Assembly: GCA_027348385.1 (NCBI GenBank)
Contig: DAIEPO010000001.1
Span: forward strand, 1-54,960
DNA: 54,960 bases
Source: a bacterium
GTDB lineage: Bacteria > Patescibacteriota > Doudnabacteria > UBA920 > VMFF01
Reading direction: 5' to 3'
Below are positions 30,514 to 34,640 of this stretch, piece by piece. Below the pieces are notes generated by a model. The model worked only from the letters and a program-made list of their open reading frames with translations, had not been told where the DNA came from and searched no databases. Each line of letters opens with the position of its first letter. Positions within the stretch are counted from its first letter, which is position 1. The position numbers and the translations under genes are program-made.

Positions 30514-31704
30514 CTACTTAGTGATTTTTGTTACAACACCTGCACCAACAGTGTGGCCACCTTCGCGAATAGCGAAGCGGAGCTTGTCTTCCAAGGCTAC
30601 AGGAGTGATCAATTTAACATTGATCTTAACTGTGTCACCAGGCATTACCATTTCCTGACCCTCTGGCAAAATAACTTCACCAGTTACGTCAGTTGTTCTG
30701 ATGTAGAACTGTGGCTTGTAACCCTTAAAGAATGGGGTGTGTCTACCACCTTCTTCTTTGGTTAAGATGTATACTTCACCTTCAAATTCAGAGTGTGGAG
30801 TAACAGATCCTGGCTTTGCTAAAACCTGACCGCGTTCAACTTCATCTTTCTTAGTACCGCGGAGCAAAATACCAGCATTGTCACCAGCTTGACCTTCATC
30901 CAACTGTTTGTTGAACATTTCAATACCAGTAACTGTAGTTTTTGCTGTTGGTCGAATACCAACAATTTCAATTTCTTCACCAATCTTGATCATACCTCTC
31001 TCAATTCTACCGGTAACAACAGTTCCACGGCCTTCAATTGAGAAGATATCTTCAATAGGCATTAAGAATGGCTTGTCTGTTTGTCTAACTGGGTCTGGGA
31101 TGTATGTATCCAAGGCTTCAACAAGCTTCATAATAGATGGCTCACCCATTTCTGATGTGTCGCCTTCCAAAGCTTTCAAAGCCGAGCCGCGGATAATCGG
31201 GGTGTCTTTGCCCGGAAATTCGTATTTGGTCAAAAGGTCGCGGATTTCTTCTTCAACCAAGTCAAGCAATTCCTTGTCCTGGACCATATCGCACTTGTTC
31301 ATGTAAACAACAATGTGTGGCACACCAACCTGGTATGCAAGCAAAATGTGCTCTCTTGTCTGAGGCATTGGACCATCAGTTGCAGAAACAACCAAGATAG
31401 CGCCATCCATCTGCGCAGCACCAGTGATCATGTTTTTAACATAGTCAGCGTGTCCTGGACAGTCAACGTGAGCATAGTGTCTCTTATCAGATTCGTATTC
31501 TGCGTGAGAGGTGTTAATAGTAATACCACGTGCCTTTTCTTCTGGAGCATTGTCAATGCTGTCATATGCACGAGCTTTAGCCTTGCCTGATTTGGCAAGA
31601 ACTGTAGTAATAGCTGCAGTCAAAGTAGTCTTACCGTGGTCGACGTGACCAATGGTTCCGACGTTGACGTGCACCTTATTACGTTCAAACTTTCCTTCTG
31701 CCAT
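30514..31704 (-). CDS. tuf: elongation factor Tu
   Basis: The ORF track extends to 31749. The real start is Met16 ([27 protein letters not shown]) with AAGGA 9 nt upstream. Also DCPGH and NKCD. Confidence 0.95.
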
Positions 31705-31805
31705 TGTGCTTTCCTTTACTGCCCGAGCATTTTCTGCTCTCCAGGGCATTACAATTAATTATTTTTTGGGGAAATAAAATTACGCGTTATGTATAACGCG
31801 TAAAG

Positions 31806-31834
31806 ATATTAACAAATATGCCCTGTTTTGTCAA
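31806..31834 (-). promoter_or_regulatory. sigma70-type promoter of tuf
   Basis: Minus strand reads TTGACA (31834-31829), a 17-nt spacer, then TAATAT (31811-31806). It is followed at about +1 by the hairpin TACGCGTTAT/ATAACGCGTA (31802-31781). Confidence 0.6.
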
Positions 31835-31868: not shown

Positions 31869-32081
31869 TTAATTTAGCTCAGAAACCGCCTCGTCTATTT
31901 CACGATCAGCCCAGGCCTCAGTATGCTGCATTTCTTTGCTTAAAGCTGCTAAACCAACATCTGATTCTCTAATCCCCTTATCTAAGTCATCAATTAGCTG
32001 GGCGGTCTTTTGCATAAACTGCGCGTTTGCCTGTTGCAAATTTGTACCAATATTATTTAATTCTGTAACTGTAATATTCAT
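31869..32081 (-). CDS. small helical hypothetical protein
   Basis: ORF track 70 aa. Its ATG starts 1 nt after the stop of the 679-aa ORF, suggesting translational coupling. Confidence 0.55.
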   Translation of the reverse strand: MNITVTELNNIGTNLQQANAQFMQKTAQLIDDLDKGIRESDVGLAALSKEMQHTEAWADREIDEAVSELN

Positions 32082-32082
32082 A

Positions 32083-34122
32083 TTATTTTTTCTTTTTTAA
32101 ACCCCATCGCCTTATTAAAAATCTACTAAACCAACCTGTGGTCTTTTTCTCTTTGTTCTTGTCGTAACGAGGCAAAGTTTTCTTTCTGTAACTACCAACT
32201 GCTTCCAAGAAAGTTCCAGTATCTAAAGTAGTTTTACCTTCTGCTAAAACATTCGGCTCAAAATCTTTTAATTTCTCTGGTGTAACTTCATCATCAGCAT
32301 CATCTGAAAGATCGTTCCAAAGATCACACAAACTTGCAATCTCTGTTTCTTGATCATAAAACTCTGCGCTTTCGGGGTCTGCGTAACCGTCTAGTTTACC
32401 AATTTGGTTTTCAATGAATGCTGCCCTAAATTTTTCTATGCTTTCTTTAAATGCTTCGATCTCTTCTTTCCTAGCACCAACGGCTCCAGAAGTTAAATGT
32501 GCAAACTGATTCTCAACAATATTTTTAAAATCACGCATTGTTAAAAGCTTTTTGTTTTTCCTGTCAGGAAACATTGATTCCGCATCTTCTTCAAATGCTT
32601 TTGGATCTAAAGCGAATTCTTTTGAGAACCTTTCATTCCAAGCAGCAACAAGCTGCCTAATACCAAAACCTTGATAATTAAATCTCCTTAACTTTCGTTC
32701 AATTGGTTCAAGCTCTCTATCAGTACTTCCTTCTTCTTCAGAGGCTTCTTCTGGGACAACAATCGCATCTTCAACATCTGTTTCCCCTGATTGACCTTGT
32801 GGGGTAGCTGGTTCTGGCATTTCCCCTGCTGGTTCAATAACAACATCGGAAGCTTCCTCTTCTAGATGTTCTCCAGTCACTGATTGTGCAGGTGCTTCTA
32901 CAGGCTTGATCTGTTTTGCTTCCGATAGTTTTATGGCTTCATCTGCAAAAATATCCCAATCGCTCTCTGAAATTTTTTGGTTAGTAAGTTCCTCAACTAT
33001 CCTTCTGAAGGTTCTGTGGTTAATACCTTCTTGTCTTTGTTGAGGGCTGACAAAAGAATTAAAAAGTTTAGAGGATATTTTTAACTTACTTCCAAAAAGG
33101 GCATTCCAAAGCTTCAACATTTTTTCAGGATCAATTTTACCTTTGTTTCTTAGTTGTTCTCTTTCTTCAGGGGTTAATCCTTGTAACCTGGCTCTGACAT
33201 CTTGCATCTTTTCTTCATCAACATCTTTTTGATGATATTTGGATTGACGAGCTAAAACTTGCTCATATTGACCACGTCGTCCTTGCCAAGCAACAACCTT
33301 CTTAGCTATGAGCTCTAAAGATTTTTCTAAACGTTCAGACTCTTTAACTCTTTGGTCTAAGTTTCTGTTGTAGTCTCTGAGTTGTAATTCTAAATCTCGT
33401 AACTCTTCTCTGTATGCGTCTTTATCAAAATCAAACTCCGCCTGGGAATGAACCTTTCGAACTTCCGCAAGCATAGCCTCTGCTTGTTCAATACTTGTTT
33501 TAAATGTTGATATTTCAGAATCAAGTTGTTGTTTTCTTGCTGTCATCACAGCCATTCTTGTTTCCAAAGGCTGTAGGTGTTCGTTTACGCGAGCAACAAC
33601 TTCATGTGCAATATCTTTATTCTTTTTCTCGTAAACTCGCTTTTTGTAATTAACACTTTCTAGATTTAACCTCGCTATTTCTCTTTCGTTTTTAGCCTGT
33701 TCAATCCTGTTTATCAAGGTCTGACGATCTTTTTGAAATTTCTTGGAATGTTCAGCTCTTACTCCAAAGGTAAGTTGCATGTCTGCTTCAACAACATCTT
33801 GTCGTCTGACACGTTCCTCTAAAGCATGTATTTCTCTGTTTCGGCTTTCGTATTCTGAAGATAGCTGATCTGCTTTTTGATCTTGTTTTCTGTACCTATT
33901 ATCATTCCACCAGGTCTGCAAACGCTCAACAGTACCAATACGAGCTGTTGTTTTTACAGAACCAACAAACTCCCGTGTGTTATTCCTGACCCGTTCAAAA
34001 AACCCCGGCTGGTTATTAATATCCAGGTCTTCTGGTATCTCTGTTCTTTGATTGTCGTTTGTTTCAGGATGATTGTCCGGTGCAGCTTGTGGCTGATGCT
34101 CCGGCCCATGTGTATTGGACAT
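32083..34122 (-). CDS. large coiled-coil hypothetical protein with triple W-N repeat and basic amphipathic C-terminus
   Basis: ORF track 679 aa. The N-terminus is disordered and acidic. Heptad-rich charged region spans about aa 85-330. Three modules follow: LKLWNALF...TFRRIVEE, LVAAWNERF...TMRDFKNIVEN and LCDLWNDLS...TGTFLEAVGS. The tail is GWFSRFLIRRWGLKKKK. Confidence 0.65.
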   Translation of the reverse strand: MSNTHGPEHQPQAAPDNHPETNDNQRTEIPEDLDINNQPGFFERVRNNTREFVGSVKTTARIGTVERLQTWWNDNRYRKQDQKADQLSSEYESRNREIHALEERVRRQDVVEADMQLTFGVRAEHSKKFQKDRQTLINRIEQAKNEREIARLNLESVNYKKRVYEKKNKDIAHEVVARVNEHLQPLETRMAVMTARKQQLDSEISTFKTSIEQAEAMLAEVRKVHSQAEFDFDKDAYREELRDLELQLRDYNRNLDQRVKESERLEKSLELIAKKVVAWQGRRGQYEQVLARQSKYHQKDVDEEKMQDVRARLQGLTPEEREQLRNKGKIDPEKMLKLWNALFGSKLKISSKLFNSFVSPQQRQEGINHRTFRRIVEELTNQKISESDWDIFADEAIKLSEAKQIKPVEAPAQSVTGEHLEEEASDVVIEPAGEMPEPATPQGQSGETDVEDAIVVPEEASEEEGSTDRELEPIERKLRRFNYQGFGIRQLVAAWNERFSKEFALDPKAFEEDAESMFPDRKNKKLLTMRDFKNIVENQFAHLTSGAVGARKEEIEAFKESIEKFRAAFIENQIGKLDGYADPESAEFYDQETEIASLCDLWNDLSDDADDEVTPEKLKDFEPNVLAEGKTTLDTGTFLEAVGSYRKKTLPRYDKNKEKKTTGWFSRFLIRRWGLKKKK

Positions 34123-34177
34123 GGAGTATATATTAATTACCTTTTAATTATACAATATTCTGTTCAAAACGCATAAT

Positions 34178-34513
34178 TTAAATATCTTCTAACTCAGCTC
34201 TGTTTTGCATGTCTGAAGAAACTTCCTCTGGTTCAAATGAAAAGGTTGAATCAATAACCTCAGAAACCAACTCTTCATGTGCTGCCTGTCTTTCATTTTG
34301 AGTTTGATCTCCTTGTTTTTGCGCTTGGATAATCTTCTGGTTAATCTCTTCAATGTCTTCAAGCTGGTTTTGAACCTTTTTTAACAATACTTTTTCATAC
34401 TCATCAATACCCATAATTACTAGGACTGGGTTGCCCTGCTCGTCAATTACGAAAAACTTACCCCCGTCTGCTTTTGATATATCAATTAGTTTCTTAAGGT
34501 TATCCATGGGCAT
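34178..34513 (-). CDS. small acidic protein with weak Phd/YefM-like N-terminus
   Basis: ORF track 111 aa. GGKFFVIDEQGNPVLVIMGIDEYEKVL resembles the antitoxin-type beta-alpha N-domain; the remainder is a charged helix or disordered. Confidence 0.5.
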   Translation of the reverse strand: MPMDNLKKLIDISKADGGKFFVIDEQGNPVLVIMGIDEYEKVLLKKVQNQLEDIEEINQKIIQAQKQGDQTQNERQAAHEELVSEVIDSTFSFEPEEVSSDMQNRAELEDI

Positions 34514-34542
34514 ATTCTATGCCTAAGAGCTTTTCCCTGCAA
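34514..34542 (-). promoter_or_regulatory. candidate promoter of the three-gene cassette (near-leaderless)
   Basis: Minus strand reads TTGCAG (34542-34537), a 17-nt spacer, then TAGAAT (34519-34514). The -10 abuts the annotated ATG (34513), so the transcript probably starts near the second ATG (34507). Confidence 0.4.
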
Positions 34543-34582
34543 ATTGACAAAAGACCGTCTTTTTTTGATAATGCGGGCAAAG

Positions 34583-34618
34583 AAAAAGCCGACAAGCGCA
34601 GCATCTGCGTCTGTCGGC
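34583..34618 (-). terminator. fusA rho-independent terminator (bidirectional shape)
   Basis: GCCGACAAGCGCAG-CATC-TGCGTCTGTCGGC (34588-34618), flanked by A5 on one side and T-rich sequence on the other. Confidence 0.75.
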
Positions 34619-34640
34619 TCTTTTTCTTTTCTAAAAGTTT

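Follow-up and report, generated by a model that had tools for sequence, protein, structure and literature searches.

An unnamed Patescibacteria gene family and a candidate two-gene module in the fusA-tuf gap of a Doudnabacteria str operon

The window analysed here is the whole of a 54,960 nucleotide stretch of Doudnabacteria DNA (contig DAIEPO010000001.1, assembly GCA_027348385.1), in which the str operon genes fusA and tuf, encoding EF-G and EF-Tu, are separated by a gap of 2.9 kb that holds three genes. The products of these open reading frames (ORFs) comprise 111, 679 and 70 residues, and are referred to as ORF111, ORF679 and ORF70. On balance, and by a slight preference only, we interpret the gap as housing two evolutionarily separate entities that share one transcription unit, i.e. 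ORF111, and a module composed of ORF679 and ORF70. The genes are real, belong to definable families, keep their positions in related genomes and have a modular composition. The features described below suggest a probable role for ORF111 as an adaptor or regulator linked to translation, and a probable role for ORF679/ORF70 as a structural scaffold. The original prediction, which was made from the letters of the window alone, regarded the three genes as a single lineage-specific orphan cassette; this framing should be replaced, as ORF111 is a widespread post-fusA gene and the pair comprising an ORF679 relative and ORF70 also occurs at other loci.

The genes between fusA and tuf

The overall gene order that had been proposed is borne out. 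All the genes lie on the minus strand, with rpsL (37682-37275), rpsG (37270-36770) and fusA (36758-34641) being followed by ORF111 (34178-34513), a member of an unnamed Patescibacteria family located directly 3' of fusA, by ORF679 (32083-34122), a long helical protein of an unnamed family here termed X, by ORF70 (31869-32081), the small helical partner of ORF679, and then by tuf (30514-31704). The ATG of ORF70 is positioned 1 nt past the TAA of ORF679, as first reported. The mechanically called tuf ORF begins at 31749; the true ATG is at 31704, behind AAGGAAAG, giving a protein of 396 residues, in agreement with the 396 residue orthologues. GC content is uniform over the region (0.35-0.40), that of the three-gene cassette being the same as that of its flanks.

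All three ORFs are genuine genes under purifying selection. Comparison of the window with four orthologous loci by the Nei-Gojobori method gave dN/dS values of 0.04-0.08 for ORF111, 0.11-0.13 for ORF679 and 0.05-0.10 for ORF70 (0.04-0.13 over the three), the corresponding values for tuf and fusA being 0.03-0.07 and about 0.02. The order fusA, with or without one opposite-strand gene, ORF111, ORF679, ORF70, tuf, a gene of about 105 residues and rpsJ is identical in all of the 15 or more related contigs; the claim that the genes are tightly linked and kept in place is sustained. The related records carry the labels "uncultured Candidatus Saccharibacteria", "Candidatus Doudnabacteria" and "Patescibacteria group", and many of the contigs derive from groundwater metagenomes. 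The checks that bear most directly against the original prediction found no assignment to toxin-antitoxin or phage families, no absence from relatives and no loss of coding signal.

Searches of Pfam, NCBIfam, PADLOC and PHROGs gave noise or sub-threshold matches only for all three proteins and for ORF112, a further gene downstream of tuf. In PADLOC there was no match for ORF679 or ORF70, and a chance-level Cas12a match only for ORF111 (E 0.0024, 13.8 bits); in PHROG there was none for ORF679, with weak matches only for ORF111 and ORF70 (E ≥ 0.004). Phage records held no match to ORF679 and plasmid records none to ORF111, direct or inverted repeats bracketing the cassette were not found, and the sole tRNA gene in the window is ~6 kb away from it. 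By these checks the cassette is not a toxin-antitoxin pair, phage remnant or mobile element.

ORF111 is a widespread gene located directly after fusA

A profile made from six ORF111 orthologues identified a family of at least 304 clusters, with members of ~100-130 residues that are 40-97% identical. The earlier description of the three proteins as having no recognisable family consequently stands for curated libraries, and falls for ORF111 with these clusters and for ORF679 with the 78 representative clusters described below. Loci containing ORF111 (loci in general being designated here by L numbers) were taken first from three distant long contigs and then, for 60 more, from a scan of metagenome contigs, and were screened with hidden Markov models (HMMs) for rpsL, rpsG, fusA, tuf, rpsJ, rplC and the window ORFs. 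In each of the three distant long contigs an ORF111 homologue is present right after fusA, the neighbours differing, and ORF111 is directly 3' of fusA in every locus that includes upstream sequence, with the qualification that in L016 an X pair comes first. The gap from fusA to ORF111 is mostly <110 nt and seldom exceeds 1.2 kb, the intervening X pair extending it to 1.9 kb in L016. Outside the X-bearing clade, most loci have tuf 0.1-1.8 kb past ORF111. Across these loci, identity to the EF-G and EF-Tu of the window goes down to 73% and 87%, respectively, and lineages without ORF679 and ORF70 are among them. Among the related loci examined there were no cases of fusA-tuf adjacency, ORF111 always lying between the two; to judge from these loci, interruption of fusA-tuf is the norm in this group, not the exception.

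Where the X and ORF70 pair is absent, as in the majority of ORF111-bearing lineages, the gap between ORF111 and tuf contains one or two predicted lipoproteins with a signal peptide and a lipobox, LLA(A/S)(G/A)C. These belong to several weakly related groups (L030, L037, L042, L046, L049, L054, L058, L060, L064, L066, L071, L073 and L075). As far as can be read from the gene content of these loci, the gap is a recurrent landing site for lineage-specific genes.

The ORF111 proteins share an N-terminal helix, a β-hairpin, a long helix, a variable low-complexity linker and two acidic-aromatic C-terminal motifs. The predicted hairpin has the pattern AKADGGKFFVIDE.G.P.LVIM..EYE, of which the AKADGGKFFVIDE block, like the C-terminal EVID(S/P)(T/S)F(S/D)FE, is invariant or nearly so; across the family the longer form of the latter, L.SEVID(S/P)(T/S)F(S/D)FE, is near-invariant, and the acidic C terminus ends in a hydrophobic residue (e.g. 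ELEDI, EIDDL). The window ORF111 has the corresponding motifs SEVIDSTFSFE and ELEDI-COOH and displays all the features by which the family is defined, i.e. a length of ~105-130 residues, the AKADGGKFFVIDE block, the EVID motif and a gene located directly after fusA. The C-terminal motifs are equally conserved with or without X nearby, which would imply that the C-terminal peptides dock onto something that is universal in these lineages.

The original prediction had noted a weak Phd/YefM-like N-terminus in ORF111, and such a match was recovered (PF02604, E 4e-4), with a score of 20.4 bits that is below the gathering cut-off of 29.8. Of 24 family members, 14 give weak PF02604 matches, all at E ≤ 0.01 and the best at 5.5e-5 (the cut-off being checked for the window member only), and 10 give weak RelB-like matches. 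The AlphaFold2 (AF2) model of ORF111 has a helix, two strands, a long helix and a disordered tail, with a mean predicted local distance difference test score (pLDDT) of 66.7; the first β-strand of the Phd/YefM fold is absent from it. A Foldseek search of the PDB with this model gave no match at E ≤ 0.001, YoeB-YefM chains appearing at E 1.2-2.8 only, and a PDB sequence-profile search with the ORF111 family gave no YefM, Phd or other relevant match. No toxin gene of a known family is present beside ORF111 in ~60 loci, its neighbours being fusA, then tuf, lipoproteins or X. ORF111 is therefore treated here as having a Phd/YefM-like N-terminal architecture, not as a member of the antitoxin family, and the weak match should not be annotated as indicating a toxin-antitoxin system.

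ORF679 and ORF70 as a gene pair

ORF679 itself has just four other 90%-identity clusters among 5.8 billion proteins (56-90% identity). By contrast, an exhaustive profile search of 1.84 billion representatives found 78 proteins of the X family at E < 1e-3, including 39 at E < 1e-10. Most of these are 410-460 residues long, match profile positions ~37-380 and have a single C-terminal domain, here termed WN, with the family pattern (Y/F)I..WN.YFGS.L.I....F; in the family as a whole the number of WN domains ranges from 1 to 4. The proteins P0127 (827 residues) and P0130 (686 residues) are full-length relatives with four modules each.

The X genes are followed, at a spacing of 1-13 nt, by a small partner gene encoding an acidic helical protein of 70-94 residues. 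In five distant cases (L016 and L080-L083) partner genes of 78-86 residues begin 3-13 nt past the X gene, and in L017 a gene of 94 residues is located ~24 nt past an X gene that is split. Homology of these partners to ORF70 is seen both with hhalign (probability 88.6%, E 2.7e-6) and with the ORF70 HMM (14-26 bits). The traits characteristic of the X family are all present in ORF679: a motif at the N terminus, a helical region rich in charge, one or more WN domains towards the C terminus, and a gene for a small helical partner immediately downstream.

The position of the pair relative to ORF111 is not fixed. The order is fusA-ORF111-X in L019, and in L017, where X is split in two, and is fusA-X-partner-ORF111 in L016. 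In L081 the X pair is away from fusA, coming after a gene with a C terminus that resembles, by eye only, an FtsX/MacB-type ABC-transporter permease; the contigs of L080, L082 and L083 are ≤ 2.5 kb, such that proximity to fusA is not readable from them. Judged by homology and gene order, ORF679 and ORF70 are a separate conserved two-gene module, evolutionarily distinct from ORF111. In L083 the X pair is located between an M23-peptidase-like gene and a gene for a secreted protein with peptidoglycan-binding-like repeats, both assigned by eye. These neighbours (L081:3-476, L083:2-172 and L083:1979-2482, all read by eye) are an anecdotal hint that the pair may be linked to the cell envelope or to division.

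Modular composition of ORF679

The N-terminal region of ORF679 includes a motif, PGFFERV...TVERLQTWWN (residues 38-75; 33898-34011, minus strand), that is near-invariant in the clade of the window and is common to the wider family, the matches of the X representatives beginning at profile positions 30-42. Preceding it, residues 1-14 (34122-34080) display the pattern M(S/T)..H(G/S)PEHQPQA, which is invariant in all five orthologues and has acidic, proline-rich and disordered-looking surroundings; P0130 has a related DPEH. The extreme N terminus may be a short functional motif.

Residues 76-320 (33163-33897, minus strand) are charged, helical and coiled-coil-like, and include motifs of the family, e.g. 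LESVNYKKRVYEKK. This is the part matched by most of the 78 representatives; it otherwise gives weak matches to SMC-type proteins only. The proposal of about 250 residues of heptad-like sequence is in part upheld, in that the sequence is charged and helical with weak SMC matches, whereas a crude test of heptad periodicity was uninformative.

The original prediction described three copies of a module of roughly 50 residues, of which the first two are confirmed. WN domain 1 (residues 329-390; 32953-33138, minus strand) matches the module HMM with an i-E of 2.2e-10 (residues 329-377), and WN domain 2 (residues 486-565; 32428-32667, minus strand) with an i-E of 3.6e-9 (residues 489-551), the HMM being trained solely on single modules of other family members. 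In the AF2 model, WN domain 1 is a helical domain with pLDDT values of 71-85 by 10-residue block, the equivalent range for WN domain 2 being 71-87. The third copy, a degenerate WN-like module (residues 596-650; 32173-32337, minus strand) with low pLDDT, was not detected directly by the HMM (residues 596-643); the modules that correspond to it at the ends of P0127 and P0130, acting as intermediates, match at ~1e-3. Self-BLAST of ORF679 did not find the internal repeats, which show only with the family HMM.

The two WN domains are joined by a variable, acidic, proline-rich linker (residues 404-478; 32689-32913, minus strand) that is poorly conserved and of varying length, with pLDDT < 35 and 22 Asp and Glu versus 4 Lys and Arg residues. 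Overall, the AF2 model of ORF679 has two moderately confident helical domains (block pLDDT ~63-87), the acidic linker and the C-terminal third being disordered. A Foldseek search of the PDB with the model of the C-terminal part gave no match at E ≤ 0.001, no recurrent Pfam family was found among 35 WN modules, and PDB profile matches to the modules were at E 0.5 or worse. The possibility that the WN module is a pair of EF-hands was considered, EGKTTLDTGTFLEAV resembling a calmodulin loop by eye, and was rejected (hhalign probability of 3.8% against an EF-hand alignment).

ORF679 ends in a basic-aromatic tail, TTGWFSRFLIRRWGLKKKK (residues 661-679; 32086-32142, minus strand). The basic sequence that had been reported there, GWFSRFLIRRWGLKKKK, is present and is nearly invariant in five orthologues of the window's clade; it is missing from the distant full-length homologues P0127 and P0130. 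The tail has a net charge of +7. The description of it as amphipathic and resembling membrane-targeting helices is borne out in part only, the tail being conserved and its helical hydrophobic moment being a modest 0.20-0.21, which is near that of the Escherichia coli MinD helix (0.27) and well under that of FtsA (0.57).

Transcription signals and the tuf leader RNA

A strong terminator after fusA was among the features first proposed and is well supported. An intrinsic-terminator-like hairpin and U-run are present at 34578-34620 (minus strand, by RNA folding), with the stem at 34620-34587 followed by UUUUUCUUU; the folding energy is -28.1 kcal/mol (z = -5.0) and was equalled by none of 200 shuffles. 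Given an A-tract upstream, this hairpin could act bidirectionally. Both of the proposed promoters, TTGCAG-17-TAGAAT (34514-34542, minus strand) ahead of ORF111 and TTGACA-17-TAATAT (31806-31834, minus strand) ahead of tuf, exist in the sequence. Promoter-like sites alone occur at chance level (21 found versus 18 expected), and it is conservation across loci that supports these two. At the ORF111 site, both hexamer blocks are kept, with a variable spacer, in five loci (L001, L005, L009, L015 and L020); the tuf site has a counterpart in the equivalent place in many distant lineages, TTGACA-N17-TTTAAAAT, with the layout TTGACA-N17-T(T/A)TAAAAT. Separate transcription signals for the cassette and for tuf are thus plausible.

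The -10 element of ORF111 (TAGAAT, 34519-34514) abuts the first ATG, and some orthologues are called from the second Met (MDNLK). For these two reasons translation likely starts at the second ATG (34507), probably on a leaderless or near-leaderless mRNA. In close relatives there is an extra opposite-strand gene of 207-248 residues, with an N-terminal hydrophobic segment, between fusA and ORF111 (L001:8849-9472, L009:7265-7891 and L015:1844-2590, all minus); it is missing in the window, L005 and L020. The presence of this gene implies that the fusA-ORF111 spacer is an insertion site too, which would account for the need of ORF111 for its own promoter.

A 10-bp hairpin with a U-run (31772-31803, minus strand) begins 2 nt past the -10 element of tuf. 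A hairpin and T-run of other sequence are at the same place in L016, and a variable hairpin is there in distant lineages. An initial assignment of this hairpin (31803-31780) purely as the terminator of the cassette was revised in light of the order promoter, hairpin, AU box and leader, which is conserved across lineages; the hairpin would serve either to terminate the ORF111-ORF679-ORF70 unit or as the opening hairpin of the tuf leader.

In related lineages the region upstream of tuf comprises, in order, the promoter, a variable hairpin, a AAUAAUUAAU box, a three-way junction, a further hairpin and the Shine-Dalgarno sequence. In the junction, P1 is GCYC/GRGC, followed by a single-stranded UGGA; P2 is UUCC...GGAA with variable inserts, followed by an A-rich strand; and P3 is GAGAUA(A)ACCCUYGG, its loop being GAUCGAU. 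This shared shape is adopted unaided by five longer leaders, with z-scores of -4.2 to -6.2, and the shortened leader of L016 has the same layout (z = -1.4). A covariance model, R1, was made from five sequences with a structure specified by hand, MAFFT and RNAalifold applied to the tuf leaders having recovered P1 only. Within 387 kb of sequence, R1 gives one full-length match per locus, always just 5' of tuf, in 28 loci (E ≤ 2e-9); full forms are found within L030-L079, e.g. at L049:1510-1593 and L034:7452-7537. A stray plus-strand match just past fusA (L060:5809-5881, 20.5 bits, E 0.007) is probably due to chance.

In an analysis of 26 sequences against 500 shuffles, using an alignment that had been fitted to the structure of the model, 91.7% of leader cells are paired (81.7% in shuffled data), 16 pairs are changed on both sides (10.0 shuffled) and the covariation score is 0.354 (0.166 shuffled), none of the 500 shuffles reaching the observed value in any of the three measures. 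Sliding the 3' partners by 1-3 columns lowers the covariation score to 0.06-0.12. There is no family match for the tuf leader in Rfam 15, and literature searching identified nothing on a Patescibacteria tuf leader or on the three genes. These comparisons indicate that the tuf leader is a conserved, structured and covarying three-way-junction RNA, of which the window holds a minimal version only. The latter (31720-31748, minus strand) consists of P1 (GCCC/GGGC), UGGA and one hairpin, and scores 13.3 bits with R1 (E 7e-4 on 251 nt).

Other genes of the region

Downstream of tuf, the region continues on the minus strand with the unannotated gene ORF112 (30461-30123) and rpsJ (30031-29714), then rplC, rplD and rplW. 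ORF112, in the tuf-rpsJ gap, is likewise lineage-specific, is without a family match and has 42-87% identity within the same clade; it is followed, ahead of rpsJ, by a promoter-like TTGACA-17-TAAAAT (30105-30077). Other lineages have 1-3 kb between tuf and rpsJ, so that this gap too contains variable genes. In L017, a gene of 122 residues with a 23S_rRNA_IVP domain (PF05635) is located between rpsG and fusA (L017:4007-4375), and fusA (L017:4430-6543) is called as two ORFs (213 and 496 residues), suggesting a frameshift or an assembly error.

Discussion

The favoured interpretation, i.e. that ORF111 and the ORF679/ORF70 module are separate in origin and share a transcription unit, leads to the following outline. 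A consensus str promoter (37833-37805), ahead of the contiguous rpsL-rpsG-fusA, would drive these genes as far as the fusA terminator; ORF111, ORF679 and ORF70 would be expressed from the promoter-like site at 34542-34514, and tuf from that at 31834-31806 via its structured leader. The hairpin at 31803-31772 might block read-through from ORF70, and it can be speculated that transcripts initiating within its 5' arm escape termination. ORF111, which at about 105-120 residues resides in the str region of a broad set of Patescibacteria, would have a Phd/YefM-like N-terminal domain, probably dimeric, followed by a long helix, a flexible hinge and C-terminal peptides that dock onto a universal partner; its fixed position between fusA and tuf makes an elongation factor, the ribosome or the control region of tuf the best guess for this partner. 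ORF111 would not be the antitoxin of a toxin-antitoxin pair. ORF679/ORF70 would be a non-enzymatic scaffold in the form of a rod, equipped with small helical domains for interactions and with an obligatory, translationally coupled partner; in the clade of the window, X appears to have gained extra WN domains, acidic linkers and the basic-aromatic tail, which might bind membrane, nucleic acid or another polyanion.

Several observations weigh against parts of this interpretation. Confidence in the two AF2 models is only moderate (mean pLDDT 55.8 for that of the ORF679 C-terminal part and 66.7 for that of ORF111) and neither gave a Foldseek match; the ORF679 tail is of modest amphipathicity and is absent from distant homologues; the relationship of ORF111 to Phd/YefM is under every curated or significance threshold; and the apparent taxonomic breadth derives from metagenome contigs, few of which are named. 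That X repeatedly adjoins ORF111 in several lineages could reflect a joint function, so weakening the case for independence.

Such a joint function is the basis of one alternative, in which ORF111 tethers ORF679/ORF70 to EF-G, EF-Tu or ribosomes, e.g. for translation at the membrane, all three proteins being parts of one co-functioning, translation-linked complex. The tight packing of the genes, the apparent translational coupling of ORF679 and ORF70, the resemblance of the conserved ORF111 tail to a docking peptide, and the finding that X adjoins ORF111 in at least four lineages despite reordering are all consistent with it. We nonetheless regard such a complex as rather unlikely, since the ORF111 tail is equally conserved in the many lineages with neither X nor ORF70 nearby, since an X pair occurs away from fusA in L081 (three other pairs being on contigs too short to inform), and since the ORF111-tuf gap is a general insertion hotspot that elsewhere holds lipoprotein genes.

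A second alternative, to which we give a similarly low weighting, is that ORF111 is a Phd/YefM-type DNA-binding regulator of tuf and/or of its own operon, possibly acting via an AATTAAT(T) box, with its C-terminal motifs binding a co-regulator. Phd/YefM N-terminal domains are dimeric DNA binders, and both the recurrence of sub-threshold Phd/YefM and RelB-like matches in the family (14 and 10 of 24 members, respectively) and the conservation, in ORF111-bearing lineages, of an AATTAAT-containing box ahead of the tuf leader can be read in this way. However, the fold match is not significant (Foldseek E ≥ 1.2), the PDB profile search was empty, the first Phd/YefM β-strand is missing from the AF2 model, and the AT-rich box may belong instead to the RNA leader or to the promoter.

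A more speculative proposal, which we consider doubtful and place below the preceding two, is that ORF111 is a Patescibacteria-specific translation factor, the dimer of which uses its C-terminal peptides (EVIDSTFSFE ... ELEDI-COOH) to recruit or regulate EF-G or EF-Tu and which, together with the tuf leader RNA, would constitute a phylum-specific control circuit for elongation factor supply. In layout, such a protein would be similar to the archaeal/eukaryotic P-stalk proteins, which likewise have a dimerisation domain, a hinge and a conserved acidic-hydrophobic tail. Finally, the view of the cassette as what remains of a toxin-antitoxin system, a defence system or a mobile element inserted in the str operon, with ORF111 as the antitoxin, has in its favour only the weak Phd/YefM match, which is the sole signal from the curated libraries, and a weak PHROG "antitoxin" match (E 0.005), and it is largely refuted, and most improbable, given the negative PADLOC, PHROG, phage, plasmid and repeat checks, a GC content like that of the flanks, a fixed position, strong purifying selection across deep divergence and the lack of a known toxin family beside ORF111 in ~60 loci.

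The genomes of Patescibacteria are tiny, their ribosomes are reduced, and few of their conserved "hypothetical" genes have been explained. ORF111, which is under constraint about equal to that of EF-Tu and is fixed between elongation factor genes, is a candidate lineage-specific translation component or regulator. ORF679/ORF70 define both a domain (WN) and a gene pair that are new and could belong to the poorly known cell architecture of these episymbionts, and the tuf leader RNA is a candidate cis-regulator of EF-Tu synthesis.

Comparison with known systems

The similarities of ORF111 to the Phd/YefM proteins (PF02604) are its small size, its N-terminal helix-hairpin-helix (KFFVIDE.G.P.LVIM..EYE) with recurrent weak matches, and a C-terminal part that is disordered and contains a conserved motif of the binding type. 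By contrast with these proteins, ORF111 is below the gathering cut-off, is without a significant fold or PDB match, has no adjacent toxin gene in ~60 loci and is fixed between fusA and tuf, under constraint about that of EF-Tu. The locus is likewise related to the canonical str operon, rpsL-rpsG-fusA-tufA, in that rpsL-rpsG-fusA are contiguous and in that the same strand continues with tuf and the S10 genes; it differs in that fusA is not directly before tuf, and in having a terminator-like hairpin and, for tuf, an own promoter and a structured leader.

The tail of ORF679 is, like the membrane-targeting helices of MinD and FtsA, at the extreme C terminus, short, basic, aromatic and conserved within a clade. 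By contrast with those proteins, it has a hydrophobic moment of just 0.21 and is missing in distant family members, and ORF679 contains neither an ATPase domain (as searched for in Pfam) nor an actin-like domain; any functional resemblance is a matter of speculation. With SMC-like rods and EzrA/DivIVA-type scaffolds, ORF679 shares ~250 residues of charged helical sequence, weak matches to SMC and archaeal SMC-related proteins and the lack of an enzymatic domain. However, it is without the head or hinge of SMC proteins, the match to TIGR02168 being at 19.5 bits versus a cut-off of 567 and covering residues 67-314 only, and, unlike the coiled-coil scaffolds, it has no transmembrane segment, its WN domains are unique and its small partner gene is obligatory.

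The tuf leader is similar to the translation-gene leaders in Rfam, including those of L10, L20 and S15, in being a structured 5' untranslated region between a promoter and a Shine-Dalgarno sequence. It differs from these in its three-way junction with UGGA, A-rich and GAUCGAU segments, which appears to be specific to tuf in these Patescibacteria.

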